Part shown: positions 821-55,527 of the stretch, one piece after another | Position numbering within the stretch: the stretch's first letter is position 1 | Layout of the letters: each line of letters begins with the position of its first letter | Assembly: GCA_020051695.1 (NCBI GenBank) | Contig: JAGVQM010000019.1 | Location: 15,221 to 79,220, forward strand | From: Candidatus Zixiibacteriota bacterium | GTDB taxonomy: Bacteria; Zixibacteria; MSB-5A5; WJJR01; JAJRUJ01 | Direction of reading: 5' to 3' | DNA length: 64,000 nt | Translations under genes and position numbers: made by a program | Notes under the pieces: model-generated | Database searches by the model: none | The model's input: only the letters and a program-made list of their open reading frames with translations | Told to the model about the DNA's origin: nothing

Positions 821-927
821 GGCACCGTACCCTCATATTTTTGTCAACCCGGCCCCCCCGACCAGCGTATAACAAACCGAGAAGCGGGATAACGGTACTC
901 CACAACGTGTAATCAGGGAAGGTAAAC

Positions 928-14914: not shown

Positions 14915-17275
14915 CTACCACCAGGACCAGAATTCGACACGGAAAAAATAAACGACACGACGCAAAACCAGTTTAATCAGCGGTCGGTCACCGCAATAAA
15001 TCTTGGCCTGTCCGGTCATGCCGGGGAATAAGCGGCCGTCAAGATTAGGGACCATGGTAATGACGTCGTACGTACTCTTCTCGCCGACAGCATATGGCGC
15101 AATCGCCAGTTTGTTGACCCGGCCTTCAAACATCTCCAACGGATAGGAACGCACCTTTAATTTAACCGGTGCGCCGATAACTACTTCACCGATATCATCC
15201 TCGGACGTTGGGATAATGACCCGCATGGTGTCGGTCCGTGCCAGTTCGAAAATAGTCTCGCCGGTGCGCGCGCGGGTCACCCGGCCGGAAAACGGCGCGT
15301 GGAAGACCGACGCCGCAATCTGCGAACGATAATAATCGACCACGGCGGCCAGCTCGGCGATTTCGGCTTCCTTGATGGCGATTTCCTCGATCTTGGGCGC
15401 GGAAATCAACAGGGACAATTCGCTTTGTTTGGCCTGTTTCGCCTGCCTGCCGACCGCTAGTTGCGTGCGGTACAGTTCAAATTCGCCATCAGAGATCAGA
15501 TTTCGTTCGTGCAGCCCTCGGGCGCGTTCGTGCTCGGCCTCGGCGTTTTCCAGCCGCGCCTCGACCTGGGCCAGCTCGGCCCGGAGCTGACGGACCTGCT
15601 CCTCCTTGGGACCGGAAAACAATAAATTCAGTTCGGCCTGCGCACGGCGCGACCGTGCCTCCATTGCCGCCAACTGGCTGGTATAACGATTACAGGAAAT
15701 GACCAGGACCGTATCACCGGCGGAGACCTGCTCACCCTCCACAAAACGCGGAGTGATCGCAATCGCCGAAAATTCCGCCGCAGTCAACTGCAGCGAGCTG
15801 CGTTCGCGGATCTCGCGCAGCCCGGCCTGGACCAACTCCGTTTCAACAATGCCGGCCTCGGGGTTAAAAATCCGATATACCGATGCCGGCTCGACACGGC
15901 AGACCGAACCGACCTTGCGCTCGGCCTGGATGAAAAAGGACGCCAGCAGCACAAGCAGGACGGCGCCCCAGAAAATGTACGGGCGCCTGGAGCGCGGCGA
16001 TTCGGGTTTTGAATCTGCCGGGGATTGGGCCGGGATCGGGGGCCCCTCTTTTTTTGTTCCCGAACTTGCGGGTTGCTCCTCGCCGCTTTTCATGTCTTTC
16101 TCCTTCCACAACGGCCGGGCCAGCATGATGCCGATAGCCCCCCATAAGACCAGCGGCCCTGCTGCGCCGAACCGGTCCGCCAAAAACGCGGTCACATGGT
16201 ACCCGACAAAACCCAGCAAAAATACCGAATACGTGAGGGCAATCAGCCCATACCAGAAAAATACCCGGCCATGTTTGTCGTCGGAGTGCACGAGACGACG
16301 GCCACATGTCCATTCGCTTACCCGCCGCTTGAGATGGCCGAACGCGCGCGCCCGCAGGTTCGGCAAATCCAGCAGATCGGCCAGCAGGTAATAGCCGTCA
16401 AGTTTGATCAATGGATTGAGATTGAACAACACGACGGCCAGCGAAACCGCGGCGACCAGAAAGGCAAAGTGATTGATCACGGTGCCCAATGCGGTGATCC
16501 GCCAGATGAAAACCGCAAGGGCAGTGGCGACCATCTGCACAAACAGCCCGGCGAGCATGACGTTCGCCTTGTGCCGTTTTTTGGGCAATAAGTAGGCGTC
16601 CGACATGTTGCAATACACGCAGGGCTGAAAATATAACAGCAAAAAGCCCATCTCGGTCACTTGTCCGCCATAATGTTTCAGGGCCACAGCGTGCCCGAAC
16701 TCATGAACAGCAGCCAGCACGAAAATAGCCGCCAGAATACCGATAATCGAGCCGAGCCGAAAAACATCCGCAAACCGCATGAAAAAAGTGCCGCTGTTGG
16801 CGCCGGCGACCGCCAGGGATAACCCGATCAACGCCACCGCCGAGATAAAAGACTCCGGAGTGAACATCCAGCGGACCCGGCGTTCGATTCCGGCCACCAA
16901 TCGATCGGGATTCAAGGCCGCGATCCGCCACATCAACAGCCGGCCCCACAATGAGCGCCCCGGCCGGTCGTGCCGCCTGCTCCGGGAAATGGCGGCCTCG
17001 GCGTACACCCCCTCGAACAGGCACAACCGCTGCATTTTGTGAAAAAACGCCAGGGCTGCGCCGGGGGGCAACTGCGCGTTAAATTTGGTGGAAAAAGCTG
17101 CTTCGGCGCCCTCGACCGTCGTCATACCGTCCATGCGTGTGATCAGGAAATATTCCGGTTCCCGCAATTTGAAAAAACGTCCCGTTGCGGGATCTTTGAT
17201 GATATAAACGGTCTGCCCGCCGGCATCCTGGGGGCTGGCGATAATATCGGGCCGCAACTTGAAATATTCGGGCAT
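14915..17275 (-). CDS. fusion protein: peptidase M50 (site-2 protease) N-terminal membrane domain + HlyD-family periplasmic adaptor C-terminal domain
   Basis: HExxH 'VHEFGHAV' and the S2P 'NLNPLIKLDG' motif within TM helices. Second half has long Arg/Glu/Ala coiled coil (QLAAMEARSRRAQAELN...AELAQVEARLENAEAEH) and β-domain like HlyD/membrane-fusion proteins. Confidence 0.7.
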   Translation of the reverse strand: MPEYFKLRPDIIASPQDAGGQTVYIIKDPATGRFFKLREPEYFLITRMDGMTTVEGAEAAFSTKFNAQLPPGAALAFFHKMQRLCLFEGVYAEAAISRSRRHDRPGRSLWGRLLMWRIAALNPDRLVAGIERRVRWMFTPESFISAVALIGLSLAVAGANSGTFFMRFADVFRLGSIIGILAAIFVLAAVHEFGHAVALKHYGGQVTEMGFLLLYFQPCVYCNMSDAYLLPKKRHKANVMLAGLFVQMVATALAVFIWRITALGTVINHFAFLVAAVSLAVVLFNLNPLIKLDGYYLLADLLDLPNLRARAFGHLKRRVSEWTCGRRLVHSDDKHGRVFFWYGLIALTYSVFLLGFVGYHVTAFLADRFGAAGPLVLWGAIGIMLARPLWKEKDMKSGEEQPASSGTKKEGPPIPAQSPADSKPESPRSRRPYIFWGAVLLVLLASFFIQAERKVGSVCRVEPASVYRIFNPEAGIVETELVQAGLREIRERSSLQLTAAEFSAIAITPRFVEGEQVSAGDTVLVISCNRYTSQLAAMEARSRRAQAELNLLFSGPKEEQVRQLRAELAQVEARLENAEAEHERARGLHERNLISDGEFELYRTQLAVGRQAKQAKQSELSLLISAPKIEEIAIKEAEIAELAAVVDYYRSQIAASVFHAPFSGRVTRARTGETIFELARTDTMRVIIPTSEDDIGEVVIGAPVKLKVRSYPLEMFEGRVNKLAIAPYAVGEKSTYDVITMVPNLDGRLFPGMTGQAKIYCGDRPLIKLVLRRVVYFFRVEFWSWW

Positions 17276-26453: not shown

Positions 26454-28754
26454 CTACCACGCCGCTTTCCACGATAACATTGCCCAGGCTGCCAGATACA
26501 ACGCTGCGGCGATCAGCAACGCGGCGGTGAAGCCCCAGGCGAAGGCGACCAGCAAAATCAATGTCGCCCCCAGCACGGATGCCGCGCCGTTGATTGCAAA
26601 TCCCCAGTCGATCAGTGTCCCCACCCGCAACGCCGCCTTGGGGAACGGCATGCCCATAAAAAAGCCCAGCGGGGAGATCAACAACGCGCTGATCAGGATG
26701 CGCGCGGTAATCGGCAGCATGGTCAGTTCCTGGAACAATCGAGGAAAAATGAAAATGTCCAACAACAACCAGGCCATGATACTGACAAAGGCCGTGCGGT
26801 CGCGGACTTTTGCCGAAAACCGGCTGCCGATGCCGGAGGAAACCAGCAGAGTCAGGAGAATCACCGCAATGCTGTACACCGCCGGTCCGACAAACAGCGT
26901 GTATTTCTGGATCAGGATTACCTCAACGGCCATAAACGCCAGACCGATGATGAAAAAATACAACCAGGGGAGGGCACGGAGTTTTTCGCGTTTCCCGAGA
27001 TACGGCACCAAATTGATCGGGATAACCAGCACGATGACAATCACGGCAATGATGACGATAATCATTTTGGAAACCGGAAAACCGAGGAAATCATACGGGC
27101 GCAGGCCGTTCAGTTTATCCCAGGAAAAATTCTTCCACAACCCCAGTTGCGCGGTAAAAGGACGGTCGTCGGTGCACGGGGAAATGTCGATCGTGGCCGA
27201 GTCGGCGGCCGCAGTCCAGCCGTTCGCGACAATTTGATTGATGATATTGCCCTGCAGCGAATCTGCTGCCGGGTACAGCAAATAACAGTAGCTTTGTTCC
27301 TCCGGCGCATGCTGCCCGAAAGCGTTACGGCGGATTTCGTCAGTCAGCGGCTTTTTGGACAACAGGATCATATTGCGCCGCATGTTGGGCAGGTTATACA
27401 CGGAAAAGTGCGCGGCGGGGTGGGCCACACCGGCAGCTTCCAGTCCGTGGATCAACTCGCTGACCAGGCGCGGCATATAAAACTGATGTTCCATCATCAT
27501 GAACCCGCTGTCGGACAGGGCCGTCCAGTAATCGCGAAAGGCCTCGGTGGTAAATAAATAATTCTCTGCCAGGGCAAACGACCCCGAGGCCAGCGCCGCC
27601 CACGAATTCGAACTGAGGGAGTAAATGACATCAAACGCGCCGGTGAACCGGCTGACATAGATCCGGGCATCTTCGGTAACGACCTTGACGCGGGGATCAT
27701 GGTAGATCCCGCCGGAGAACTCGGCCAGCGTGGTGAAATGTCCCAGGGAATCCGCTCCCGCCGAATCGGGGGGGAACGGCAGGTACCCGCCGGGGTCGCC
27801 CACGGTCATCATGAAATTGATATGCGGGTTGACCTCCACGGCATGAATTTCGGCCGCGCCATATTGCAACGCCTGCAGCACATCGACACCACCCCCTGCC
27901 CCCAATGAAAGGAAGGTACAGGAATCAAAACGCCCGATCAAATTGGAAACATCGATGCCGAACTCGTACAGCATCGAATCCGGTTTATCCCAGTTGCCGT
28001 CGAAACCATACACCGGAGAATTGGCCGCGTTATCGATGTTGATTCCACGATAGGTTTCATCGTAACCATAGAGTTTAATCTTGGACATCGCATCCCAATG
28101 CTTGTAAATGACCGGGCCGTGCTCGGGACGATCGACTTCCAGCATGCCGACAGCATAATTGCCGAGGACAAGCGCCGCCGCTGCCAGGGCCAGGGGGAGG
28201 ATTCTAGACCAGCGCCGACAGGCAATGAACGCCGCCGTTAGGACCGGCAAAGAACACCAGAAGACCGTGGCCGGGGTGCCGATCGCGTTCATCAGGTAGA
28301 TCGCCACGAACACGCCGGCCCCCGCGCCAAGCAGGTCGGCCATATATAGTCGCGGCACATTTTGATGGTCCTGCTTAAACAGCAGCGCCAGGACCATCCC
28401 GGCACAGAAAAACGGCGCACCCAGCAGGACAATGGCCCCGATCAGCTTTCCGATCATTGCGGCACTGGTGAACACCCGCGCAAAGTCCGGTCCGAGCTGG
28501 AAGACCAGTGGCGGGCCGGCCAGGGCGAACAGACCGGTCAGCGCCAAATATCCGCCGACACTGCGCAGCCGGTTCAATCCCGGGACCAGCCGCAACGAAA
28601 GTGCCCCCAGACCCAGGCCCATGACCGCCAATGACAGAACCAAAAAGGCAAAACTATAGAAAAATTCGGCGGAAAAAATTCTGGTCCAGACAACTTCCAA
28701 TGCAATTATCGAAACAGACAACAGGGCAATGATGACATACTTGCGGTTTCCCAT
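26454..28754 (-). CDS. polytopic membrane protein with embedded spermidine-synthase-like (aminopropyltransferase-fold) domain
   Basis: 766 aa. Many TM helices at both ends. Central 'FLSLGAGGGVDV...DPRVKVVTEDARIYV' matches the SAM-MTase-like spermidine synthase fold. Confidence 0.55.
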   Translation of the reverse strand: MGNRKYVIIALLSVSIIALEVVWTRIFSAEFFYSFAFLVLSLAVMGLGLGALSLRLVPGLNRLRSVGGYLALTGLFALAGPPLVFQLGPDFARVFTSAAMIGKLIGAIVLLGAPFFCAGMVLALLFKQDHQNVPRLYMADLLGAGAGVFVAIYLMNAIGTPATVFWCSLPVLTAAFIACRRWSRILPLALAAAALVLGNYAVGMLEVDRPEHGPVIYKHWDAMSKIKLYGYDETYRGINIDNAANSPVYGFDGNWDKPDSMLYEFGIDVSNLIGRFDSCTFLSLGAGGGVDVLQALQYGAAEIHAVEVNPHINFMMTVGDPGGYLPFPPDSAGADSLGHFTTLAEFSGGIYHDPRVKVVTEDARIYVSRFTGAFDVIYSLSSNSWAALASGSFALAENYLFTTEAFRDYWTALSDSGFMMMEHQFYMPRLVSELIHGLEAAGVAHPAAHFSVYNLPNMRRNMILLSKKPLTDEIRRNAFGQHAPEEQSYCYLLYPAADSLQGNIINQIVANGWTAAADSATIDISPCTDDRPFTAQLGLWKNFSWDKLNGLRPYDFLGFPVSKMIIVIIAVIVIVLVIPINLVPYLGKREKLRALPWLYFFIIGLAFMAVEVILIQKYTLFVGPAVYSIAVILLTLLVSSGIGSRFSAKVRDRTAFVSIMAWLLLDIFIFPRLFQELTMLPITARILISALLISPLGFFMGMPFPKAALRVGTLIDWGFAINGAASVLGATLILLVAFAWGFTAALLIAAALYLAAWAMLSWKAAW

Positions 28755-43198: not shown

Positions 43199-46138
43199 CT
43201 ATAATTCTCCGTTGGCGTCGGTTTTAATGATGCTGAAATCAGCAGATGTGGCACCATGAGCGGTCATCCACCCGCTGATGATCAGACCACCATCGGGAGC
43301 TTCAATGACACCGGTGGCCCCATCACTTTCGGAATCACCGATGGTCCGTTCCCACAGGATCGTCGCAGTCGGACTTATTTTTGCCACGTACATATCGCTT
43401 TTGCCTGCGCCAAACGATTTAGTAGAACCAACAACAACAAAATTGCCATCCGAAACCGCAATGATCTTTGAAATCGCATCATCATTGCCGCCACCCAGAT
43501 AGAGTTCGTTGCGTTTATTGCCCAACGAATCAATCCATATTACATAACCATCTTTCATTCCGAAATACGATGCCTGGGTCCATCCGGCAATTACGTAATC
43601 ATCGATTCCATATTGAATCAGCGATTCGCCACTGTCATTGTAATAGTAGGCCCCCTGACCGTAATCTCTGCCCCACAAGTTTTTACCCTGCGCATCAGTC
43701 TTGGTAACAAACAAACCGACGCCAGCTATCATCAACCCGGTATCATGACACTGAATCACCGCATTGCCGCCATAGCCCGAATATTGCCTTTTCCAGGTTT
43801 CCTGTCCGATGGCATCAGTTTTGAACAAGAATGCTGCGGGGTTGCCTCCGACGGAGCCAGACAGAACATACCCACCGTCTGATGTTGCTGCGACAGATCG
43901 GCTGCCAGCCACCACCGTGGCACCGTCAACATAATGAAGGCGTTCCCAACCAATTGAACCGAAATCATCGATTCTGGCGATTACAACTCTGGTATCCCAT
44001 ACTAATCCCCCGCGTTCCCCCGATTCTCCGGCCGCGATATATCCACCATCCCATGCCGGGATTATTGAAAAGAGGTAATCGTCATAATCCGGTCCATGGC
44101 CAAAAACCCGTTCCCATGCCACTGTACCATCGGCGTTGACTTTAGTCGCGTAAAAATCAGAAGTCGACTGCGGTGAATAACTTGGACTCCAATAGGCAAC
44201 GCCATTTGGAATTGTGCCGACCGCCACCGCGCCACCCTCAGGGGTTAAAGTAATTGAGCGTGCTGCTTTCCTGCCAGTGCCTCCGATAATAGTATACCAA
44301 GTATTGGATAACGTTGTTGTTTTCGCCTCTGCCACATTGGAAAGTCCAGACCAATTTCCCGAAGTATCCGCCGTCTTCAGCGCTAAAAAATAATTCAATC
44401 CTGGAGTTAATCCGATTATCTCAAATGATTCCGCTTCGTGTACAGGTTTCGCAGGCCGTAATCCTTCTGCCGGAATCCCCTCACTCCATGTATCATCTGT
44501 AATCGGTGACGTTGCATAGCGCATGTCGTATTGAGCTGCCTGCCCCAAAAGACTATCGTCACCCGACGCGTTCCAAATCAAGGTCACCGAATTATGGCTG
44601 ACGGTTTGCGGGTACAGGTTCGTTATTGCTGCCGGAGGGATTGTGTCTGTTCCAGGTCGGGCGATTCCCAGCACATCATTCGAGAGAGGGGACCAATTCT
44701 GGACCTCATCCGCAGTTTTTATGGCAAAATGATAGGCGGTGTTTTTCGTCAAACCCGTTACCATGAGTGTTTCCGGGGAACCACTTGATAGAGGCAACGT
44801 AACACCGGGATAGGAATATAGTGCTCTGAAATTAGTTTCATTAATTACTGAAGTCGAGTATCGAAGATCGTATAAACTAGCCGTTCCCACATCGCCATCA
44901 TCTCCCGGCGCCGTCCAACTCAAGGTCAGCGATGTCAATGATGAATCGATAATCCGCAAATCAATGATTGCCCCCGGCGGCGTCCGGTCGATGCTCGCTG
45001 TCCGCGCCGCCAGTACGTTGGACATCGTCGACCAGTTCAGCATTTCGTCGCCGGTTTTCAGGGCAATATAATATTCAGTTTCACTCTGCAAACCGGAAAT
45101 CCTGATTGTGTCACCAGTTCCGGCGAACGATGGTTTCGGCAGATTTGGCGCGATTTGTGCATCGGGAAAATTCACTTCGTTCATCAGCCGGGGAGAATAA
45201 CGAATATCATAAAACGACGCTCGTCCCAGCGTGTCGTCATCACCCGGCGCCGTCCAGATCAACAAAAGAGAAGTGCTCGTCGTATCCAGAACTCTCAGAT
45301 CAGCAATCGGTCCCGGAGGCGTGGTATCGGCCGCCGTGGCGCCGATGATGACATTAGACATTGCCGACCAGTTCGGGACTTCATCGGCGGTTTTAATTGC
45401 AAAACAATAATTTTCGTTCGTGTCCAGGTCATAGAAAGTATACTGCTGCGTGCTGTCCGCCAGCCAGGGTGTCGGTGGATCGGCAACCTGTTTCGCATGA
45501 ATAAAATATTCGTCGGTAATCAGCGTGGTCGGTGAATAACGGATATCATATGCTGCGGCAGTCCCCGCCGAGCCGTCATCGCCGGGCACGGTCCAGCTTA
45601 ATTCAATGAAGGTATATCCGGCGTCAGTCACCCGCAAATCGGCAATTGCTGCCGGGGGGACAGTATCCAGGACAGCTTCTGTCGTGCCGGTGGCGATATT
45701 GGAGATCGCCGACCAGTTGGGCACTTCATCAGCCGCCTTGATCCCAAAATAATATGTTGTGTCCGGCAACAGCCCGAGGACCAGCATCGTCTCCGGCGTC
45801 CCCGCTTCCTGCGGGATCGGCAGACTGAACGGCTGCAGCGCCGAATCCCAGGTGGAATCGGTCAGGACGATGGAATGAAATCGGATATCATATTGGGCCG
45901 CCGTGCCGTTGGCGTCATCATCCCCGGGCGCGGTCCAGGTCAGCACCAGCGAACTGTCAGTGGGATTGATCGCCGCAAGATCGGTAATTTGTGCCGGGGG
46001 TGTGCTGTCGGGAATACCGGTGCCCTTGTCGGTTTTTTCCACGCCGCAGGACAAGACAAGCACGACGATCAAACCGGCGCCAATCAACGACTTTCGCAGT
46101 CGCATCCCCACCTCCCGCCGAGCGCAAGTGTCCGGCAT
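43199..46138 (-). CDS. large cell-surface lipoprotein: five tandem Fn3-like repeats + C-terminal β-propeller-like repeat domain
   Basis: Signal peptide with lipobox-like 'LVLSCG' (alternative start MRLRKSL at 46105). Five ~100-aa repeats each containing 'PPxxIxDL...LxWTAPGDDxxxGxAxxYDIRYS...YYFAIKTADEVxNWS'. C-terminal ~350 aa of ~45-aa repeats (DGGYIAAG / DGGYVLSG / DGNFVVVGS...W.R). Confidence 0.65.
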   Translation of the reverse strand: MPDTCARREVGMRLRKSLIGAGLIVVLVLSCGVEKTDKGTGIPDSTPPAQITDLAAINPTDSSLVLTWTAPGDDDANGTAAQYDIRFHSIVLTDSTWDSALQPFSLPIPQEAGTPETMLVLGLLPDTTYYFGIKAADEVPNWSAISNIATGTTEAVLDTVPPAAIADLRVTDAGYTFIELSWTVPGDDGSAGTAAAYDIRYSPTTLITDEYFIHAKQVADPPTPWLADSTQQYTFYDLDTNENYCFAIKTADEVPNWSAMSNVIIGATAADTTPPGPIADLRVLDTTSTSLLLIWTAPGDDDTLGRASFYDIRYSPRLMNEVNFPDAQIAPNLPKPSFAGTGDTIRISGLQSETEYYIALKTGDEMLNWSTMSNVLAARTASIDRTPPGAIIDLRIIDSSLTSLTLSWTAPGDDGDVGTASLYDLRYSTSVINETNFRALYSYPGVTLPLSSGSPETLMVTGLTKNTAYHFAIKTADEVQNWSPLSNDVLGIARPGTDTIPPAAITNLYPQTVSHNSVTLIWNASGDDSLLGQAAQYDMRYATSPITDDTWSEGIPAEGLRPAKPVHEAESFEIIGLTPGLNYFLALKTADTSGNWSGLSNVAEAKTTTLSNTWYTIIGGTGRKAARSITLTPEGGAVAVGTIPNGVAYWSPSYSPQSTSDFYATKVNADGTVAWERVFGHGPDYDDYLFSIIPAWDGGYIAAGESGERGGLVWDTRVVIARIDDFGSIGWERLHYVDGATVVAGSRSVAATSDGGYVLSGSVGGNPAAFLFKTDAIGQETWKRQYSGYGGNAVIQCHDTGLMIAGVGLFVTKTDAQGKNLWGRDYGQGAYYYNDSGESLIQYGIDDYVIAGWTQASYFGMKDGYVIWIDSLGNKRNELYLGGGNDDAISKIIAVSDGNFVVVGSTKSFGAGKSDMYVAKISPTATILWERTIGDSESDGATGVIEAPDGGLIISGWMTAHGATSADFSIIKTDANGEL

Positions 46139-46202: not shown

Positions 46203-47642
46203 TTACTCGATTTCCAGCCGCCAGGGCAGCACATACCAAATACGTTCGTCATTCAACGCCGATATTTCAGCAGCCACATCGTCCGCCCGATAACCGAACA
46301 GCCAACCCGGCAACCGGATCGGCGGGGCGGCAAACCACGGGGCACGGGGCAGGAGTCTGACTTCGTAGTTATTGCGGTCGATCCCCGCCAGTTGCGCCGC
46401 CGAGGCGATGGCCCGCTGCAGCCCACCGTATTCATCGATTAAGCCGAGGTCCTTGGCCGCTTTGCCGGTCCAGACCCGGCCCTGCGCCGCGTGCTCAGTC
46501 TCTTCGTGCTCCAGCCGGCGGCCCTTCGCCACCACCTCGATGAAATTATCATATAACAGATGGACCTGTTGGCGCAGTATCTCTCGTTCCTGCTCGGAAA
46601 ACGGCCTGCTCATGCTGTACATGTCGGCGTGCGCACCACGGGTGGAGGTTTCTTTGTCGATGCCGATTTTTTCGTACAACCCGGCCAGGTTGATTTTGCC
46701 GTAATACACGCCGATTGAACCGGTGATTGTCGCGGGCGAGGCAAAGACCGAATCAGCAGCGCAGCCGATATAGTAGCCGCCCGAGGCCGCGACATCGGCC
46801 ATCGAAACGACCAGCGGCTTTTTGTCCCGGGCCAACTCCAGTTCGCGTTTGATCAGGTCGGCGGAGATGCCCGACCCGCCGGGCGAATTGATGCGCAGGA
46901 CAATGGCCTTGACATCCCGGTCGTTGCGCGCCTCACGAAGGGCTGCAACCATGGTTTGTGCCCCCAGCACCTCGCCGGCCAACAGGTCATCACGGTCCGT
47001 ACCCGGCAGCATCGTGCCCTCGGCAACGATCACGGCGACTTTGGGGATCGGTCCCCAGGCCGTGCGGTGGTATGACCGGTCGGCCAGCGCAGCAAAATCG
47101 ACGCGCGCGGCCCCCCGGGAAATTTTATCCTCGATGATTTGGCCCAGCTCATCTTCGTAGGCAATCTGGTCGACCAGCCCGGCGCGCTCTGCGTCCACAC
47201 TCACCAGCGGACCGCCGTCGATCAATTCCCGCACACGGTCCGGGGACAAGTCGCGGTCGGCGGCAACGGTCGTGACCAATTCCATAAAGATGTCGTCCAG
47301 CAGCGCTTCCCGGGCTTCACGGGCCGGTTCGGACAACGAGGTGCGGGAATATGTCTCGACCGCGCTTTTATATTCGCCCACCCGTTCGTATTCGAACTCG
47401 ATGCCGAGCTTGTCCATCAAATCCGTATAGAACGTTGCCTCTGCGCGCAGACCATCGAGATTGACCGTCGACACCGGTGGGCAAACCAGCCAATCGGCCG
47501 CACACGCCAGGTAATACTCGCCGTCGGACGGCGACGAGGAAAAATACACGACGACCGGTTTGCCCTGGGACTGAATCTGCCGAATTGCCGTGCGCAGTTC
47601 ATCCAGCCGCGCCCAGCCAACGTGCAGGTCATCCAAACGCAA
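46203..47642 (-). CDS. sppA: signal peptide peptidase SppA (S49 family, two-domain type)
   Basis: Two S49 repeats. Second carries 'SPGGSGISADLI' and 'VVSMADVAASGGYYIGCAAD'. No obvious N-terminal TM in the ORF as called (TTG start). Confidence 0.75.
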   Translation of the reverse strand: MRLDDLHVGWARLDELRTAIRQIQSQGKPVVVYFSSSPSDGEYYLACAADWLVCPPVSTVNLDGLRAEATFYTDLMDKLGIEFEYERVGEYKSAVETYSRTSLSEPAREAREALLDDIFMELVTTVAADRDLSPDRVRELIDGGPLVSVDAERAGLVDQIAYEDELGQIIEDKISRGAARVDFAALADRSYHRTAWGPIPKVAVIVAEGTMLPGTDRDDLLAGEVLGAQTMVAALREARNDRDVKAIVLRINSPGGSGISADLIKRELELARDKKPLVVSMADVAASGGYYIGCAADSVFASPATITGSIGVYYGKINLAGLYEKIGIDKETSTRGAHADMYSMSRPFSEQEREILRQQVHLLYDNFIEVVAKGRRLEHEETEHAAQGRVWTGKAAKDLGLIDEYGGLQRAIASAAQLAGIDRNNYEVRLLPRAPWFAAPPIRLPGWLFGYRADDVAAEISALNDERIWYVLPWRLEIE

Positions 47643-47680
47643 CAGCAGGCCGCGAACGGCCGGGTCGGCCGCGACTTTAT

Positions 47681-48649
47681 CTAAAACGGTGAGGATTTCG
47701 TAATGCGTCCGAGGCCGGGAAACAAAAAAAAACGGGGAGATTGTTTCTCGGCCGGCGCCCCGCTCAGCGAAATATCGGCCACTTCCCGGCGCAGGTGCAC
47801 TACCGAGCGGCGGCGCTCCTTGAACGATCCGGCAGCCAGCGTACCACGGAAAAACTTGCCGTCCCGGTCAAAGGCATTGTATGACGAGAGCATTAATTCG
47901 GCCAGGTTGAGTTGCACGCCCAGGCCGAATTTGTGGCTGCTCACGGATCCGCCATACAACGGTCGGCCTTTGTCGCCGTAATCGCCGCTGATGATCAGCC
48001 CGTCCACCAATTCCAGCCCGGCCGTAAGATGATAGGCGCCGTCGGCCAGCCGCTGCCCCGTGGACTGGTAATAATCGGCTCCGAGTACCAGCCGTTCATC
48101 AAACATGTTTACCGCCGCGGAATACGCATACACCCCGGCGGTACGCTCCCCGGCGTACGGCATATGGTTGGCGTTTTCCAAGCGTACGCCCAGCGAAAGG
48201 TGCTCACCGGGCCGCACCATCAGCGCGTAGGTCCAGAAATGCGCCTTGTCCTCGAGTACGTCATCGGAGGTGACCCAGCGATACGAGGCCCCCAGATAGA
48301 TCCGGTCCTTGATTTCGCCGCCCCAGCCCAGCGTGTGGTGCCGGGCATCGGGTTCGCCGCCCGAACCCAGCCATTCGACCCCGAAAGCAAATCCGCTGCG
48401 CCCGACATAGATCAGGTCGTTGCCGGCAAGGTCGGAATCCGAATACGTATGTGCCACATACGTCCGCCAGTCGTTATCGGCGGCCAGTGTGCCGGGGTTG
48501 TACCGGAGCGCCCATAGTCCGTCGGCGGCAGCTACACTTTGATAGGGCAGCAGCACCCTCCGGTCGGGATAGACCATCTCGGCCGAGACAGATACCACCG
48601 CAGTCACAAGAATTCCGATAAGTACTGCACAGGCGACAGCTTGTTTCAT
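47681..48649 (-). CDS. putative outer-membrane β-barrel protein (hypothetical)
   Basis: Signal peptide (MKQAVACAVLIGILVTAVVSVSA), alternating-hydrophobic β-strand pattern, aromatic-rich, terminal Phe. Confidence 0.45.
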   Translation of the reverse strand: MKQAVACAVLIGILVTAVVSVSAEMVYPDRRVLLPYQSVAAADGLWALRYNPGTLAADNDWRTYVAHTYSDSDLAGNDLIYVGRSGFAFGVEWLGSGGEPDARHHTLGWGGEIKDRIYLGASYRWVTSDDVLEDKAHFWTYALMVRPGEHLSLGVRLENANHMPYAGERTAGVYAYSAAVNMFDERLVLGADYYQSTGQRLADGAYHLTAGLELVDGLIISGDYGDKGRPLYGGSVSSHKFGLGVQLNLAELMLSSYNAFDRDGKFFRGTLAAGSFKERRRSVVHLRREVADISLSGAPAEKQSPRFFLFPGLGRITKSSPF

Positions 48650-48669: not shown

Positions 48670-49779
48670 TCAGATGGAATCGCCCTCGTCTTTGGTCACC
48701 CGAGGATATGGTCCTCGCAGCATGATATCGCCGCGGTCGTCGATGGCGATGTCCAAAAGACCGCCTCCTTCACCGGCGACACCTTCCAGAGAGTACCGGT
48801 CGATCTGCGTAATCTTGAGCGGCAGTCCTCTGGTGCGGATCGATCCGCCGCCGGTCCTGCTGATCGATGATTGCACCACCGCGGAAAAACCTTCATGGGT
48901 CACTACGGTGACATCGGAGTTATCGGTACGAATCATCACATTGGCCCCCTGCCACCGGGCAATATCGAGATCCACCGGGGAATTGCGCGAGGTAATCCGT
49001 GAATTCCCGCCGGTCACTGTCCAATCGGAAATATTCACCGGCGCATCGTCGACCCGGATATCGACCGCTCCCTCAATTTTTGTAAAATCCAGTTGCCCTC
49101 GTTCCGACCGAACCTGCAATGGTTCGGAAAATCCGGTGAGATCTTTTAACGTCGTAACACCAAAATGGTTATTGATCTGTATCCGGCCCTGTGCGCCGGC
49201 CAGCGACAAGGCGCCGTACTCGGTCCGCAGGTCCGCCGCTTCGGTCACGCCCGTTACCTGGATGCCGCCGTACGTCCCGTGAATTTGTACTTCGCGGAGC
49301 GGCCCGGTAAGATCAAAGTCAAAAAATTCCGAATCACCACGGAAAATCCGTCCCGGCGGCAGCAATATCTCGAAAGCGACCGTCACGCCGATCTGACTGC
49401 CCTCCCACTCTGCGTCCCGGGGCGTGGTGATCCCGATGCGCAATACTTCCCGAACGACCTCAGTCTGCACCGTGATCGACTCCAGGATTCGCGCAGCGCG
49501 TTCGCCGCTGGAGAGATTGTAAAGATTTTTTTTGATTTCGATTTTGATGTCGTCGACATCGACATCGGTCCGCAGCCGTATCTCGCCGCGGATATTCTCG
49601 GGTGGTTTGAACTCGAGCATGGAAATATCGGCGGCGGGAATGCGGCGGATTTCGCTTGCGGCAAGGCCTTGCCGGCTTTCGGCGGTGTTGTCTTCGGCCT
49701 GCGCCAGGCCCGAAAGCATCACGACCAGACCGGCCAGCCGCAGTAGTCGAACAAGCTTAATCTCAAAGCGTTTTGTCAT
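48670..49779 (-). CDS. secreted β-rich protein, DUF4097 / putative-adhesin-like
   Basis: Signal peptide, then Gly/Thr/Asp-rich repeated β-strand units (IRVDDAPVNISDWTVTGGNSRITS...). Confidence 0.4.
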   Translation of the reverse strand: MTKRFEIKLVRLLRLAGLVVMLSGLAQAEDNTAESRQGLAASEIRRIPAADISMLEFKPPENIRGEIRLRTDVDVDDIKIEIKKNLYNLSSGERAARILESITVQTEVVREVLRIGITTPRDAEWEGSQIGVTVAFEILLPPGRIFRGDSEFFDFDLTGPLREVQIHGTYGGIQVTGVTEAADLRTEYGALSLAGAQGRIQINNHFGVTTLKDLTGFSEPLQVRSERGQLDFTKIEGAVDIRVDDAPVNISDWTVTGGNSRITSRNSPVDLDIARWQGANVMIRTDNSDVTVVTHEGFSAVVQSSISRTGGGSIRTRGLPLKITQIDRYSLEGVAGEGGGLLDIAIDDRGDIMLRGPYPRVTKDEGDSI

Positions 49780-50834: not shown

Positions 50835-53543
50835 ATGTTATGTTATACTGCAATGGTCAACATGTGCCAACGAATTAAATATCTCGGGCAGGCGGCTGTC
50901 GGCCGCCGGTTGCTGCTGATTATAGTTGTCTTGACCTGGCCGCCCGGAGTATCGGTCGCCGGCTGGCCCGGCGACAGCAGCATGGTTTTTGAAGCGCCGG
51001 GCATTTATGAGCGGCTGTATCGCAGCCATATCCAGTCGACAGACGGGGCGCCGACCCTGTCTTTGACCTTATCCGGAGGAGGCGCGAGAGGCCTGGCGCA
51101 AATCGGCGTGCTGCGTGCCATCGAAGAACGAGGGCTGGTCGTCACCGGCATTGCCGGGACGAGTCTCGGCGCCATCATCGGCGGGTTGTATGCAGCCGGT
51201 TATTCCGCGGAGGAGTTGGATTCACTCGTCCGCGTGGCCGATTGGAATTCTTTTTTTTCCGATACACCGCCGCGCACGCATTTGTTGCTGCCTCAGAAAG
51301 ATGCCCGCTCTCGCGCCTTTCTGACGCTCCATTTTCGCGGGCTTAAACCCAATTTGCCGACGGCCATGACCGGCGGCCAGCCGCTGCTGCAACTACTGAC
51401 GGAATTATGCCATGCGGCCGAATATCATGCGCGATCGGACTTCGATTCGCTGGCCATCCCCTTTCGCAGTGTCGCGACCGACCTGGTTTCCGGCCGGGCC
51501 ATAATCCTGCGGCACGGTGACCTGGCGCTGAGTTTGCGGGCCGCCTCGGCGTTCCCACTGGCCCTCTCTCCGGTGCATCTGGATTCGATGATGCTGGTCG
51601 ACGGTGGTTTGATCAGCCCCATTCCGGTATCATCCGCCCGCGAGTTCCCGGCCGACCTGGCGCTTGCGGTCAATACAACCTCAGAATTGGAATCGGCGGT
51701 CGCGCTGGAAAACATTTACAACGTGGCCAATCAATCGACCACCATCATGACCCGGCCGCAGTCCCAACAGGCGCTAACGCTGGCCGACGTGGTCATCGCG
51801 CCGCTGTTGCACGAGTACAACAACCTTGATTTTGACCGGGCCGATACGATCATTGCGCTGGGATACAGTGCAGCTTGCCGGGTTTTGGATTCACTACTGG
51901 CGTACTATCAACCACCGGCACAGGACTCGGCCGCCGGTGAACGCGATATCACCGTCGATTCTGTCGCCGTCTCCGGCTTGGATGAGACGGTCCTCGAACA
52001 CCGCGAAATTATTGCCTATCTGCGGTCGCCGTCCGGCGACAAATTATCGCTTGAACGTCTGGAACATAAACTGCATCAGGTAATCGACAACGGCCAGGTG
52101 CGCCGCATAACACTGCAGGTTTCCGCCGATCCCCGGCCGACCATTGGCGAGATAACCATCTCCCCCTATCCCCGGCTGCGCGAGGTGGTCTTCGACGGCA
52201 ACAGCGTGTTTCCCAATGCGGTGTTGGCCGCCGGCTTTTCCCCGCTGATCGGGCGTCTGGCCGACACACGACGGCTGGCCGAGGCACTTCGCAGTTGCCT
52301 GGAATTATATGAGGCGGAGGCCTACTCTCTGGTCGAAATCCGGGCTGCCGAACTCGACGATTCCACCGGGCGCCTGAGAGTGGTCATCGATGAAGGCCGG
52401 CTTTCCGGGCTGGAGGTTGCCGGCAATACCTCGGTTAAAGACTGGGTGATTACCCGCCATTTCCCGCTGCAGAAAGGCCGGTTGTTTAATTTTCGGGAAT
52501 TTTTTCACGGATTGGAAGATTTGCACGCCACCGGGTTATTCAACAATGTTGGGGGCCGGATCGCCCGGGGGGCCGACGGGCCCATCGTCAAACTCAACGT
52601 TCGCGAAAAAGACTACGATATTGTGCGCTTCGGATTACGGCACGATTTGGAATACCAGACCGACGTGTTCGCCGAGGTTGTCAACAGCAACCTTCTGGGG
52701 CTGGGGAATGAAATTTACATACACGCGGGGTATTGCCCGCGCCGGGAACGATACGCCGCCGGTGTGCACGCCGACCGGATGTTCCGCACCTACCTTAACG
52801 CCGCTGTCCAGGCCTATCGGGAGATCCATGAACGGTACCGCTACGTGGACTACCATCGCCGCGGCTTTTTCGAGACGGCCCGGACAGGGTTGATGCTGAC
52901 GGTGGGACATAACATCAAACGTTTTGCGGCATTCTCGGCCAATGTGCGGCTGGAGGATATTGTCCTCACCGAAGAGCCGCCGCTGCCGAATTCGCGCGCG
53001 CGTTTGCGGGCGATGGTATTCTCGGCGCAGTATGACGACCTTGACCGGTATCCTTTTTCCCGCCATGGCCGGAAGTTTGATTTGTCGGTGGAATTTGCCG
53101 ATGATTTTGTCGGCGGCAATGTGGTGTATCGGAAGGCTTGCGCCCAGTTGGAAAACTGGTTGTCGCCCATCGGCCGGTTCACGATCGGCCAGCGGATAAC
53201 TCTGGGGGTGGCCGACCGCGTTGTGCCGGATTACGAGCGTTTTGCGTTGGGGGGCCGCCAGTCGATGATGGGGTTGCACGACGATGAATTCCTCGGCGAT
53301 AAGCTCATCCTCGGCAACCTCGATTGCCGGGTGCGGTTCTTTTCCCGCAGTTATATGAATTTCCGTCTTGATGTAGGTGGGGTCTGGGAGGACGGGGACG
53401 ATGTCCGGCTGATTGACGATTTGCGAGTTGGCACCGGGGCCGGACCTTCATTTGATACTCCTTTGGGACCCTTGGAGTTGATGTGGGGGATTGCCGAGGA
53501 CGATCTCACGAATTTCTATTTTAACTGGGGTTATGACTTCTAA
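50835..53543 (+). CDS. patatin-like phospholipase fused to POTRA + Omp85-type β-barrel (PlpD-like, type Vd secretion)
   Basis: Patatin motifs GGGARG (oxyanion hole), GTSLGA (GxSxG nucleophile), DGG (catalytic Asp). C-terminal half is a D15/ShlB-like β-barrel ending '...NWGYDF'. Confidence 0.75.
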   Translation: MLCYTAMVNMCQRIKYLGQAAVGRRLLLIIVVLTWPPGVSVAGWPGDSSMVFEAPGIYERLYRSHIQSTDGAPTLSLTLSGGGARGLAQIGVLRAIEERGLVVTGIAGTSLGAIIGGLYAAGYSAEELDSLVRVADWNSFFSDTPPRTHLLLPQKDARSRAFLTLHFRGLKPNLPTAMTGGQPLLQLLTELCHAAEYHARSDFDSLAIPFRSVATDLVSGRAIILRHGDLALSLRAASAFPLALSPVHLDSMMLVDGGLISPIPVSSAREFPADLALAVNTTSELESAVALENIYNVANQSTTIMTRPQSQQALTLADVVIAPLLHEYNNLDFDRADTIIALGYSAACRVLDSLLAYYQPPAQDSAAGERDITVDSVAVSGLDETVLEHREIIAYLRSPSGDKLSLERLEHKLHQVIDNGQVRRITLQVSADPRPTIGEITISPYPRLREVVFDGNSVFPNAVLAAGFSPLIGRLADTRRLAEALRSCLELYEAEAYSLVEIRAAELDDSTGRLRVVIDEGRLSGLEVAGNTSVKDWVITRHFPLQKGRLFNFREFFHGLEDLHATGLFNNVGGRIARGADGPIVKLNVREKDYDIVRFGLRHDLEYQTDVFAEVVNSNLLGLGNEIYIHAGYCPRRERYAAGVHADRMFRTYLNAAVQAYREIHERYRYVDYHRRGFFETARTGLMLTVGHNIKRFAAFSANVRLEDIVLTEEPPLPNSRARLRAMVFSAQYDDLDRYPFSRHGRKFDLSVEFADDFVGGNVVYRKACAQLENWLSPIGRFTIGQRITLGVADRVVPDYERFALGGRQSMMGLHDDEFLGDKLILGNLDCRVRFFSRSYMNFRLDVGGVWEDGDDVRLIDDLRVGTGAGPSFDTPLGPLELMWGIAEDDLTNFYFNWGYDF

Positions 53544-53703
53544 GCCGGGCCGGCACCCGCCGATGGTATTGACACAGACGGCAGCCTGCAGGTAGATTGC
53601 CGGTCGGAACAGGCGGACGAATGCCCGCCGTGAAGAAAACAAAACGTTCTGCGGAACGTATCATATTGCGCCACAGGATGATGTTTTTTTCAGAGGAGGC
53701 CCG

Positions 53704-55527
53704 GTGAGCGATTTCAAGGCGGTTCAGCGTACACACACCTGCGGGGAATTACGAGCATCCGATGCCGGCAAAACCGTCCGGCTCAACGGCTGGCTGCACC
53801 GCTGGCGCGATCATGGCGGCCTGTTGTTCGTTGATGTACGTGATCGCTACGGCCTGACCCAGGTTGTTTTTCGGCCGGATATCCTGGACCGGGAAACCAT
53901 GAAACTGGCCGGGCATGTCCGGGCCGAAACGGTCATCGCGGTGGAGGGCGTCGTCGGTTTGCGGCCGGAGGGAATGATCAACACGGAAATGCCCACCGGT
54001 GAAATCGAGGTGGTCGCCGGCAAACTGGCGGTACTCAATGAGTCCAAGACACCGCCCTTCGAAATCGCAGAGGAGACCACCGCCGCTGAGGAGCTGCGCC
54101 TGAGATACCGCTACCTGGACCTGCGGCGGAATTTCCTGAAAGACAAACTCATTCTGCGGCACAAAGTCTGCCTGGCCATCCGCAATTACCTGAGCGCCCG
54201 GGATTTTCTGGAAATTGAAACACCGCTGCTGATGCGTTCCACACCGGAAGGCGCACGGGACTATATCGTTCCGTCCCGGACAGCCAGGGGAAAATTTTAT
54301 GCGCTGCCGCAGTCCCCGCAGTTATTGAAGCAAATGCTGATGATCTCCGGGTTCGATAAATATTTCCAGCTTGCGCGCTGTTTGCGCGACGAGGACCTGC
54401 GGGCCGATCGGCAGCCCGAACACACGCAGATCGATATGGAAATGAGTTTCGTGACCATGGACGATATCTTTGCGGTGATCGAGGGGCTGATGCAGCACCT
54501 GTTTAAGGAAATCCTCGGCATAGATCTGGTGATCCCGTTTCCCCGTCTGACTTACGCCGAGGCGATGTCGCGCTATGGAATCGACAAGCCGGACACACGC
54601 TACGGGCTGACCATCACCGACCTGTCGGACATCGTCGCCGGCTGCGGATTCAAAGTCTTTGCCGAGATTGTCGCCGCGGGCAAGACCGTCAAAGCCATTT
54701 GTGCTCCGGGGCAGGCCGGGCTGTCCCGCAAACAGGTCGGACAATGGGAGGAAACTGCCAAAAGCGCCGGGGCGAAGGGTCTGGCTTATATTTTGTATGG
54801 GGCGGATGGCCCTCGGTCGTCGATTGCAAAATTCCTCGGCCCAGAAATCATGCAGCAGATTGCCTCGGCGACTGCGGCAACGACCGGCGATGCCGTGTTT
54901 ATCGTCGCGGACGATAAGACCGTCTGCGAGGGAGTCCTGGGGCGGCTGCGCATCGAGATGGCCCGGGAATGGGGTCTGGCCGACCCCCGGCGGTTCGAGT
55001 TCCTCTGGGTCCACGCTTTCCCGCTATTCGAATATAATCCCGAGATCGGGCGTTTCGATGCGATGCATAATATCGTGACTTCTCCGTATGCCGAGGACCT
55101 GGCGCTGCTGGAGGAGGGCCGGTCGACACCGCTGGCGGCTGTCGACCCACATCACCCGTGGGCCCGCGTGCGCGCCAACCAGTATGATTTGGTGCTTAAC
55201 GGGACGGAGATCGCCTCGGGTGGCATCCGCAACCACCGGCGGGATATTCAACAACAGATCCTCAATATCCTTGGGATCGATGATGAACGCGCCGAGCGGA
55301 TGTTCGGCTTTCTGCTGGAGGCCCTGGAATACGGCGCGCCGCCGCATGGGGGGATCGCTCCGGGGCTGGACCGCCTCGTGGCGGTCATGACCGGTTCCGA
55401 TTCCATCCGCGATGTCATCGCCTTCCCCAAGACAACTGCCGCGCAATCGCTGATGGACGGCGCCCCGGCGGAAATCGACGACAAACAATTGCATGAATTG
55501 GGCCTGGCAATCGTCGATAAAAAATAA
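53704..55527 (+). CDS. aspS: aspartate--tRNA ligase
   Basis: 607 aa. 'LRYRYLDLRR' and 'FQLARCLRDEDLRADRQPEHTQIDMEMSF' class-II motifs, GAD insertion domain, C-terminal 'GGIAPGLDRLVAVMTG' motif 3. GGAGG RBS before the GTG start. Confidence 0.9.
   Translation: MSDFKAVQRTHTCGELRASDAGKTVRLNGWLHRWRDHGGLLFVDVRDRYGLTQVVFRPDILDRETMKLAGHVRAETVIAVEGVVGLRPEGMINTEMPTGEIEVVAGKLAVLNESKTPPFEIAEETTAAEELRLRYRYLDLRRNFLKDKLILRHKVCLAIRNYLSARDFLEIETPLLMRSTPEGARDYIVPSRTARGKFYALPQSPQLLKQMLMISGFDKYFQLARCLRDEDLRADRQPEHTQIDMEMSFVTMDDIFAVIEGLMQHLFKEILGIDLVIPFPRLTYAEAMSRYGIDKPDTRYGLTITDLSDIVAGCGFKVFAEIVAAGKTVKAICAPGQAGLSRKQVGQWEETAKSAGAKGLAYILYGADGPRSSIAKFLGPEIMQQIASATAATTGDAVFIVADDKTVCEGVLGRLRIEMAREWGLADPRRFEFLWVHAFPLFEYNPEIGRFDAMHNIVTSPYAEDLALLEEGRSTPLAAVDPHHPWARVRANQYDLVLNGTEIASGGIRNHRRDIQQQILNILGIDDERAERMFGFLLEALEYGAPPHGGIAPGLDRLVAVMTGSDSIRDVIAFPKTTAAQSLMDGAPAEIDDKQLHELGLAIVDKK

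Follow-up and report, generated by a model that had tools for sequence, protein, structure and literature searches.

PlpD of the pathogen Pseudomonas aeruginosa (patatin domain, PDB 5fqu and 5fya) combines a signal peptide, a patatin-like phospholipase domain, a POTRA domain and a 16-strand β-barrel, an architecture for which reviews use the type Vd autotransporter class, defined as having ‘only one POTRA domain’ (PMC6555100, PMC4104836). A PlpD fragment was reported in the culture supernatant by Salacha and co-workers in 2010, as cited in PMC6555100 and PMC11116518. Fusobacterium FplA, a type Vd phospholipase A1 of the same family, likewise possesses a single POTRA by description, and the phospholipase A1 activity of its recombinant patatin domain is described as dependent on the Ser/Asp dyad (PMC6555100, PMC5724010). 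A Bacteroides fragilis homolog is sensitive to proteinase K on intact cells (PMC4319957). In 2024, Hanson and co-workers placed the PlpD patatin domain exclusively in the periplasm, from truncations, protease accessibility and disulfide bonds that form in vivo between this domain and the POTRA, and showed PlpD to be a homodimer; its lid undergoes a strand swap with barrel strand 1, and its lipase is docked on the one POTRA, which adjoins the barrel (PMC11116518). Phospholipids are elevated in the plpD deletion strain and PlpD probably acts in outer-membrane lipid homeostasis, for which the same study draws a comparison to OMPLA/PldA, a dimerising outer-membrane barrel phospholipase for lipid homeostasis (PMC11116518). 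The number of POTRA domains is not constant, as Arnold and co-workers recorded in 2010 a two-POTRA class of ‘Omp-Patatin’ proteins, listing ‘1-2’ POTRAs (PMC2878562).

Here, we describe a PL-Omp85/PlpD family member in three-POTRA form, encoded within the window, by which we refer to the entire 64-kb stretch of DNA that was analyzed (Table 1). The gene is a single open reading frame without interruption, its stop codon at 53541-53543; a chimeric or misassembled frame was ruled out, as more than 100 homologs span at least 92% of its length. Public databases hold a 100%-identical protein of 896 aa (entry P0001) that begins at Met7 (50853), and the names now used are ‘NTE family protein’, ‘BamA/TamA family’ and ‘patatin-like phospholipase’. 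The best match among species-representative genomes is 36% identical. Met7 is favored as the start because homolog N-termini match there, with the N-terminus of the closest homolog (P0003), MVTVCHR, corresponding to MVNMCQR at Met7. No convincing Shine-Dalgarno sequence was found before the ATG codons of Met1, Met7 or Met10, while the adjoining AspRS gene possesses one, and the DNA surrounding the gene yielded no more promoter or terminator candidates than shuffled controls did.

Table 1 Features of the three-POTRA PL-Omp85 gene and of its product; positions are those of the window.
Feature	Residues	Positions	Strand	Support
PL-Omp85 gene, complete, 902 aa		50835..53543	+	ORF list
Sec-type signal peptide (inferred)	1-42	50835..50960	+	heuristic n/h/c analysis
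N-terminal extension of mature protein	43-73	50961..51053	+	AF2 secondary structure, N-terminal comparison
Patatin-like phospholipase domain	74-357	51054..51905	+	Pfam PF01734, 5fqu_A, PlpD ortholog
Oxyanion-hole motif G81-G-G-A-R-G86 (patatin block I)	81-86	51075..51092	+	58-sequence alignment, PlpD ‘SGGAARG’
Nucleophile elbow G108-T-S110-L-G112	108-112	51156..51170	+	58-sequence alignment, 5fqu_A alignment
Lid hairpin with L165-H-F167	163-173	51321..51353	+	alignment to PlpD
Catalytic Asp motif D256-G-G	256-258	51600..51608	+	invariant; aligned to PlpD ‘LVDGG’
Flexible linker, lipase to POTRA1	358-372	51906..51950	+	AF2 pLDDT <50 at 361-369
POTRA1	373-446	51951..52172	+	AF2 topology, Foldseek, phmmer
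POTRA2	447-522	52173..52400	+	Pfam POTRA_2, AF2, class alignment
POTRA3, adjoins barrel	523-592	52401..52610	+	Pfam POTRA, BLASTP, class alignment
16-strand Omp85 β-barrel (310 aa)	593-902	52611..53540	+	Pfam, DSSP on AF2, Foldseek

The product shares with PlpD the order of its domains, the aligned catalytic dyad and oxyanion hole, a hydrophobic-x-hydrophobic lid at the PlpD ‘ISF’ position, and a predicted C-terminal β-signal. Its N-terminus is signal-peptide-like by heuristic analysis: the n-region carries a net charge of +4, the h-region extends from L26 to P37 (LLLIIVVLTWPP), and the c-region GVSVA, in which Ser occupies -3 and Ala -1, points to cleavage between A42 and G43; a lipobox Cys, sought in the same feature analysis of the signal peptide, was absent. 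The basic-hydrophobic-small pattern recurs in almost every one of the 58 aligned homologs, and the AF2 model has a low-confidence helix at residues 8-33. The mature protein would then begin with an extension of ~30 aa that is lacking in the Pseudomonas PlpD orthologs. In the AF2 model, the extension forms a β strand (48-53) and a helix (57-63), with a mean pLDDT of 84 for the block 51-60; searched alone against Pfam, it returned no match.

The lipase domain is recognized with scores far beyond chance. Pfam Patatin is matched at residues 77-268 (E 1.3e-29; 104 bits, cutoff 27.7), phmmer against PDB sequences recovered the PlpD patatin domain 5fqu_A over query residues 72-362 (E = 1.8e-59), and BLASTP identity to a Pseudomonas PlpD ortholog is 40% in this domain. 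A sequence-only reading of this DNA had held that all three patatin signatures are intact, and they are, conserved throughout a 58-sequence family alignment: no sequence departs from G81, G82, G108, S110, G112 or D256-G257-G258, and at G83, A84, R85 and G86 conservation is 90% or higher. The PlpD catalytic dyad is Ser60/Asp207 (PMC6555100), and the alignment to 5fqu_A equates Ser110 with Ser60 and Asp256 with Asp207; a single shift of the 5fqu_A chain index by +19, which yields PlpD numbering, accounts for both pairs. The catalytic dyad and oxyanion hole are thus intact and phospholipase activity is predicted. Patatin block III reads A-A-S-A-F-P here, as compared to A-S-M-S-I-P in PlpD. Within the lid hairpin, L165-H-F167 aligns with the β-signal-like ‘I-S-F’ lid motif of PlpD; all 58 sequences of the alignment have a hydrophobic residue at 165 and at 167, and the third position of the motif is Phe in 19 of the 58.

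A single POTRA separates lipase from barrel in PlpD and the orthologs of Pseudomonas; in the Zixibacteria protein there are three. The full-length Pfam search placed POTRA_2 at residues 448-521 and POTRA at 526-591, and both assignments persist above cutoff when the POTRA2 and POTRA3 segments are searched alone (POTRA_2, E 2.8e-06; POTRA, E 6.7e-05). POTRA1 is assigned least securely, because its segment alone finds no match in Pfam. Its AF2 topology is β-α-α-β-β, with AF2 also backing the topology of POTRA2, and a Foldseek match spans the entire three-POTRA TamA structure 4c00, POTRA1 included. By phmmer, the POTRA arm is collinear with the POTRAs of Fusobacterium nucleatum BamA. In comparisons to the Pseudomonas POTRA, POTRA1 is weakly similar (z = 3.1), while POTRA3 yields a BLASTP HSP (z = 4.8); POTRA3 corresponds to the one POTRA that PlpD possesses. 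Pairwise z-scores among POTRA1, POTRA2 and POTRA3 are at most 1.2, which rules out a recent internal duplication; the two additional POTRAs are old, diverged units. They could possibly provide a longer arm, partner binding, or another placement of the lipase.

The barrel was described in the sequence-only reading as comprising the C-terminal ~550 aa. A barrel is indeed present, but it is confined to the last 310 aa, with the preceding ~220 aa taken up by the three POTRAs. Pfam Omp85 is matched at 619-902 across the whole profile (positions 1-325 of 325, E 2.1e-19), and DSSP on the AF2 model (pTM 0.68) counts 16 long barrel strands. Foldseek returned BamA and TamA structures with E values of 1e-25 to 1e-30. 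Identity of the barrel to that of a Pseudomonas PlpD ortholog is only ~23%. The chain ends in a predicted β-signal of canonical form, F894-Y-F-N-W-G899-Y-D-F902; all 58 family sequences share Y895 and G899, and 57 share F902. Loop L6 of BamA, TamA and FhaC carries the conserved motif (V/I)RG(F/Y). In the PL-Omp85 family, L6 (~794-822) reads GGxxx[FLM]xG[LF], without a conserved Arg. The profile search and strand count that the earlier reading had proposed thus bear out its domain assignment, with Patatin, POTRA_2, POTRA and Omp85 all matched in Pfam, and of the features on which it had staked that assignment, the N-terminus is signal-peptide-like by heuristic, the barrel has 16 predicted strands, and Ser and Asp are in register with the patatin active site.

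Alignment of the family by length class demonstrated that one-, two- and three-POTRA members exist and that they are distributed by lineage. POTRA3 is kept in every length class, POTRA2 in the two- and three-POTRA classes, and POTRA1 in the three-POTRA class only. Members with three POTRAs are frequent in Zixibacteria, Ignavibacteria and Calditrichota, and their class is the dominant one in several phyla of the FCB group; they were not described in the literature searched, which gives one or two POTRAs. The Chlorobium ‘Omp-Patatin’ proteins (e.g. CT1556) resemble the Zixibacteria protein as patatin-Omp85 fusions of the FCB group with more than one POTRA, but lack its POTRA1; accordingly, a protein from a Chlorobiaceae MAG aligns with POTRA2 and POTRA3 present and POTRA1 absent. 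FplA, compared by description only, differs in its single POTRA. The assignment of the Zixibacteria protein as a PlpD-like type Vd autotransporter therefore stands as to the PlpD family and fails as to type Vd, the definition of which is a single POTRA where this protein has three.

The gene lies between genes for a SpoU rRNA methylase and for AspRS, PhoH and a 7TM-HD protein. A 61%-identical ortholog sits in the same gene order, which there continues into YbeY and CorC, and the divergent SpoU neighbor is kept in Zixibacteria orthologs at 36% identity. The GC content of the gene is that of its flanks. This match and the conserved synteny rule out recent horizontal acquisition and together characterize a core gene passed on by vertical inheritance rather than an effector island. 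Rfam identified two tRNAs and no rRNA in the window. While the host of PlpD is a pathogen, the host of the three-POTRA protein is, to judge from named homologs of this protein and of the adjoining AspRS, an uncultured, environmental Zixibacteria-type organism. This housekeeping context and environmental host fit envelope maintenance better than action on other cells, and the relevance to the membranes of other cells that had been suggested from the sequence finds less favor accordingly.

We consider it probable that the protein is a three-POTRA PL-Omp85 with a periplasmic lipase, likely dimeric, the substrates of which would be phospholipids in the outer membrane of the same cell. The POTRAs would stay periplasmic, as in every Omp85 studied, and by homology with PlpD the lipase domain would also be periplasmic and the protein probably a dimer. 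The lipase would act as a phospholipase A on the outer-membrane phospholipids of the cell itself, serving lipid homeostasis, and the hydrophobic lid hairpin at L165-H-F167 may gate the active site via contact with the barrel. This mechanism is carried over from PlpD, to which identity is 40% in the lipase domain and only ~23% in the barrel. The docking geometry of the PlpD lipase may not carry over to a lipase positioned behind three POTRAs, the structural model here being that of a monomer. OMPLA/PldA would be a functional analogue, with an unrelated fold and no homology: the barrel of OMPLA has 12 strands and carries the active site on its outside, and the enzyme acts on phospholipids of the outer leaflet.

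Classical type Vd secretion, wherein the POTRA-aided barrel moves the patatin domain to the cell surface for display or cleavage and for attack on other membranes or external lipids, is unlikely. PlpD and FplA were first modeled in this way, and textbook classification still follows it (PMC6555100, PMC4104836), and the domain order here, with a passenger-like enzyme between the signal peptide and the POTRA and barrel, matches it; the B. fragilis homolog is, moreover, protease-sensitive on intact cells (PMC4319957). Such sensitivity can, however, reflect outer-membrane permeability, the PlpD experiments put the domain in the periplasm, and export of a folded, dimerised 31-kDa domain has been argued to be energetically unfavorable (PMC11116518). 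The Zixibacteria protein adds a difficulty of its own, as its three POTRAs put the start of the ~15-residue linker far from the barrel; with POTRA1 two POTRAs away from the barrel, threading of the lipase through the barrel would be harder than in the one-POTRA PlpD. The housekeeping neighborhood and free-living environmental host also speak against secretion, and the vicinity of the gene contains no conserved partner gene, whether for a protease or otherwise. The surface-exposed or released lipase proposed in the sequence-only reading rests on this 2010 type Vd model and, by analogy to the periplasmic domain of PlpD (PMC11116518), probably does not apply.

A second possibility is that the protein is a BamA/TamA-like assembly or translocation factor to which the lipase is an accessory domain, the POTRA arm recruiting substrates or a partner that spans the periplasm, e.g. 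a TamB/AsmA-like lipid-transfer protein, and the barrel working on other proteins or lipids. Structurally, TamA (E. coli 4c00; P. aeruginosa 8us1) is likewise built of three POTRAs before a 16-strand Omp85 barrel; Foldseek overlays the last 530 residues of the Zixibacteria protein on the whole of TamA (563 columns, TMt 0.62, E 1.3e-27), BamA is matched at E ~1e-30, the collinearity with the F. nucleatum BamA arm was noted above, and the POTRAs are old and diverged, as they are in TamA (PMC4104836). TamA has no lipase domain, however, and its sequence similarity to the Zixibacteria protein is marginal and confined to the C-terminal end of the barrel (E ~5e-3). The equivalog profiles for BamA and Omp85 score far under cutoff (TIGR03303, 101.6 bits against 297; NF047779, 38.5 against 200), as does NF008287 (21.5 against 1181), and orthology with BamA or TamA was rejected on these scores. 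L6 lacks the conserved Arg, and neither a TamB/AsmA-like nor any other conserved partner gene stands beside the gene in the window and four related loci. Such a role is very unlikely. A patatin-type anti-phage or abortive-infection lipase, a CBASS-like effector that is incidentally membrane-anchored, is so improbable as to be set aside: the weak matches, to CBASS_lipase and an anti-phage phospholipase in NCBIfam and to a cUMP-AMP-activated phospholipase in the PDB, extend over only ~55 residues at the oxyanion and nucleophile motifs, the NCBIfam scores lie far below cutoff (24 against 200 bits, 23 against 400), no cyclase or other defense gene is adjacent, and the full architecture is that of PL-Omp85.

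Returning to the periplasmic phospholipase that we favor, the three-POTRA form invites a further, speculative and quite unlikely proposal: that it is the ancestral, BamA-like state of the family and works unlike PlpD, either holding the lipase off the barrel or recruiting an AsmA/TamB-like partner, such that lipid degradation would be coupled to envelope lipid trafficking where the proteobacterial lipid-homeostasis systems are absent. The collinearity with BamA, the mutual dissimilarity of POTRA1, POTRA2 and POTRA3, and the stepwise absence of POTRA1 and then POTRA2 elsewhere in the family are compatible with such an ancestry.

For the PL-Omp85 family, these findings mean modularity in POTRA number, with one, two or three such domains. 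The PlpD model, in which the lipase rests on a single POTRA and the lid engages barrel strand 1, becomes a testable question of geometry once two POTRAs are inserted. The three-POTRA proteins are natural tests of the periplasmic and secretion models, as a 15-residue linker positioned three POTRAs away from the barrel fits autotransport poorly. With its annotation thus corrected, the Zixibacteria protein is most likely an envelope lipid-homeostasis enzyme rather than a secreted weapon.

In the ORF list of the window, 50835..53543 (+) is a single uninterrupted ORF encoding the 902-aa PL-Omp85 protein. Pfam profiles detected Patatin, POTRA_2, POTRA, and Omp85 domains, in that order. The top solved-structure match in a phmmer search was the patatin domain of the Pseudomonas aeruginosa prototype PlpD (5fqu_A, E = 1.8e-59, residues 72–362), and in this alignment the G81GGARG, G108TS110LG, and D256GG motifs coincide with those of PlpD. 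The catalytic dyad of PlpD is Ser60/Asp207 (PMC6555100); with one offset (5fqu_A chain index +19), Ser110 and Asp256 of the query fall on Ser60 and Asp207, respectively. Residues G81, G82, G108, S110, G112, and D256-G257-G258 are invariant in the 58-sequence family alignment. The patatin architecture with three intact catalytic motifs, as recognized by the sequence-only reading, is thus confirmed far above chance.

An AlphaFold2 model built from the 58-sequence family alignment is confident (mean pLDDT 83.9, pTM 0.68), and its strand count bears out the proposed barrel. In Foldseek against the PDB, matches to BamA and TamA reached E-values of 1e-25 to 1e-30, and the match to three-POTRA TamA 4c00 spans its full length (563 columns, TMt 0.62). 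POTRA2 and POTRA3 exceed Pfam cutoffs when searched as isolated segments; POTRA1 as an isolated segment had no Pfam match. Five lines of evidence point to the POTRA1 assignment: i) predicted topology, ii) the end-to-end TamA coverage, iii) a collinear phmmer alignment with the F. nucleatum BamA POTRA arm, iv) a weak resemblance to the Pseudomonas POTRA (z = 3.1), and v) a faint Toc75-type POTRA match at the equivalent position in one homolog. Pairwise comparison of the three units detected no mutual similarity (z ≤1.2), so they are old units and not recent duplicates.

Features of the PL-Omp85 protein and its surroundings (residues refer to the 902-aa product)
Feature	Position	Strand	Basis or remark
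N-terminal helix	residues 8–33	+	AlphaFold2, low confidence; typical of signal peptide
Mature N-terminal extension	50961–51053, residues 43–73	+	strand 48–53, helix 57–63; mean pLDDT 84 for 51–60
Small strand-helix extension	residues 48–63	+	AlphaFold2
Patatin α/β domain	residues 74–357	+	AlphaFold2
Patatin	residues 77–268	+	Pfam, E 1.3e-29
Disordered linker	residues 361–369	+	AlphaFold2, pLDDT <50
β-α-α-β-β unit 1 (POTRA1)	residues 373–444	+	AlphaFold2
POTRA_2	residues 448–521	+	Pfam
β-α-α-β-β unit 2 (POTRA2)	residues 450–519	+	AlphaFold2
β-α-α-β-β unit 3 (POTRA3)	residues 525–591	+	AlphaFold2
POTRA	residues 526–591	+	Pfam
Barrel, 16 long β strands	residues 595 to 899	+	AlphaFold2
Omp85	residues 619–902	+	Pfam, E 2.1e-19, all 325 profile positions matched
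L6-type loop	residues ~794–822	+	AlphaFold2
SpoU-family RNA methylase	upstream of PL-Omp85 gene		divergent orientation
AspRS, PhoH, 7TM-HD protein	downstream of PL-Omp85 gene		
SppA-like part, L001 residues 1–300	ORF 47681..48649, 322 aa	-	no Pfam match
SppA-like part, L001 residues 313–813	ORF 46203..47642	-	Peptidase_S49, E 2e-81

Heuristic analysis of the N-terminus found an n-region of charge +4, a 12-residue hydrophobic core (L26–P37), a V-S-V-A↓G site whose -3 and -1 residues are small, and no lipobox; nearly all homologs in the family alignment show this same pattern. The predicted signal peptide is kept with each candidate start codon (Met1, Met7, or Met10); of these, Met7 agrees best with the N-termini of homologs and with the database entry and is the favoured start. 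The N-terminal extension that precedes the patatin domain matched nothing in Pfam; long-form homologs carry it in differing sequence forms, whereas Pseudomonas PlpD lacks it. The C-terminus, ...F-Y-F-N-W-G-Y-D-F, reads as a canonical outer-membrane β-signal, with Y895 and G899 invariant across the family alignment and F902 present in 57/58 sequences.

The POTRA number sets this protein apart from PlpD. A Pseudomonas PlpD ortholog (730 aa, complete genome) possesses one Pfam POTRA (335–401) with the barrel directly after it; its BLASTP identity to the query is 40% in the lipase domain and about 23% across POTRA3 plus barrel. Aligning representatives of three length classes from a scan of species-representative genomes, we found that Pseudomonas and Flavobacterium keep POTRA3 alone; that POTRA2 and POTRA3 are kept in alphaproteobacterial MAGs, Fibrobacteres, Chlorobiaceae, Kapaibacterium, and Latescibacterota; and that all three are present in the query, Zixibacteria, Calditrichota, and Ignavibacteriales. 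Judged from these alignments, the POTRA content of the family is modular. Reviews define type Vd autotransporters with 'only one POTRA domain' (PMC6555100; PMC4104836), and Arnold et al. 2010 catalogued 1–2 POTRAs, with two-POTRA cases in Chlorobium (PMC2878562); the searchable literature yielded no account of a class with three. The sequence-only reading thus has the family right, but in POTRA number the protein departs from type Vd as so defined. An entry identical to the query is already in public databases, and 96 of the best 120 database matches are 860–992 aa long with the same domain set. Three-POTRA PL-Omp85 proteins are common in FCB-group genomes and apparently undescribed in the literature searched.

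Named homologs of the PL-Omp85 protein and of the adjacent AspRS (62–65% identity) come almost entirely from Candidatus Zixiibacteriota MAGs; one 178-kb NCBI contig carries both the 100% AspRS match and the identical PL-Omp85 entry. At L001, the locus of a 61%-identical ortholog, gene order matches and continues with YbeY and CorC. Zixibacteria orthologs at 36% identity keep the SpoU neighbour with varying downstream genes, and in the one Gemmatimonadota genome examined the neighbours are entirely different. GC content is in line with that of the flanks, and the genes in the remainder of the window are those of an ordinary chromosome (ArgRS, an EPSP-synthase-family gene, oligopeptidase F, and MATE, MacB, and AcrB transporters). 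This pattern marks the PL-Omp85 gene as a core gene that stands alone and is inherited vertically.

The PL-Omp85 stop and AspRS are 160 nt apart, and this gap contains a sigma-70-like TTGACA-18-TAGATT match (53569–53598, +) and a strong AGAGGAGG Shine-Dalgarno (53687–53703) preceding the AspRS GTG, which together suggest independent transcription of AspRS; promoter matches in a scan around the PL-Omp85 gene did not outnumber those in shuffled controls. As listed, the PhoH-like ORF and the end of AspRS share 35 nt (55493–55527, +); in L001, PhoH begins 4 nt past the stop of AspRS, which makes a downstream codon the probable true start of PhoH here. Upstream, an SppA-like signal-peptide peptidase (46203–48649, -), a single 814-aa ORF in L001, is split over two frames; the implied frameshift near 47712–47747 could reflect a pseudogene or a mistake in assembly or sequencing. 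Another protein, of 369 aa (48670–49779, -), has a signal-peptide-like N-terminus and no Pfam match; its L001 counterpart, a 368-aa hypothetical protein, sits at the same position, between SppA and the SpoU methylase. Elsewhere, a 979-aa protein (43199–46138, -) carries fibronectin type III repeats in its N-terminal part, matches a purple acid phosphatase N-terminal domain and a Rha78A-like Ig domain more weakly, and is probably secreted or surface-located. In what looks like an unusual fusion, a 786-aa ORF (14915–17275, -) joins a Peptidase_M50 (site-2 protease) region to a C-terminal HlyD-type membrane-fusion barrel-sandwich domain; a 766-aa ORF (26454–28754, -) matches no Pfam family at E ≤ 1e-5.

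The latest experimental work on PlpD overturns the type Vd secretion model. Hanson et al. 2024 found the PlpD patatin domain to be exclusively periplasmic and POTRA-docked, in a homodimer; a lid segment that carries a β-signal-like I-S-F motif undergoes dynamic swapping onto barrel strand 1, and many phospholipids accumulate in the plpD deletion strain (PMC11116518). The lid position reads L-H-F in the query, and 58/58 family members have hydrophobic residues at the L and F positions. Because of the PlpD results, the conserved hydrophobic lid positions, the housekeeping synteny, and the environmental host, the best-supported reading, and a reasonably probable one, is that the PL-Omp85 protein would act as a periplasmic phospholipase for envelope maintenance. 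Secretion of a surface-exposed or released lipase, as the sequence-only reading had it, is no longer the best-supported mechanism for this family (PMC11116518). We consider it unlikely, even though older data report a PlpD fragment in the supernatant, and a B. fragilis homolog was protease-sensitive in older work (PMC4319957). In the model, about 15 flexible residues link the lipase to POTRA1, itself two POTRA domains from the barrel; threading the lipase through the barrel would thus be harder than in PlpD, and we infer that this geometry, too, favours a periplasmic lipase. Less likely still is an assembly role like that of TamA/BamA, in which the long POTRA arm would bind a partner: family-model scores are sub-threshold, the L6 loop has no conserved Arg in the family alignment, and the neighbourhoods examined contained no partner gene. 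Conserved neighbours of the PL-Omp85 gene include neither a TamB/AsmA-like gene nor a protease or another candidate partner. Assignment as a defence lipase was rejected, NCBIfam matches to defence-lipase models being sub-threshold. Three-POTRA members are naturally suited to discriminating between the periplasmic-lipase and autotransport models.
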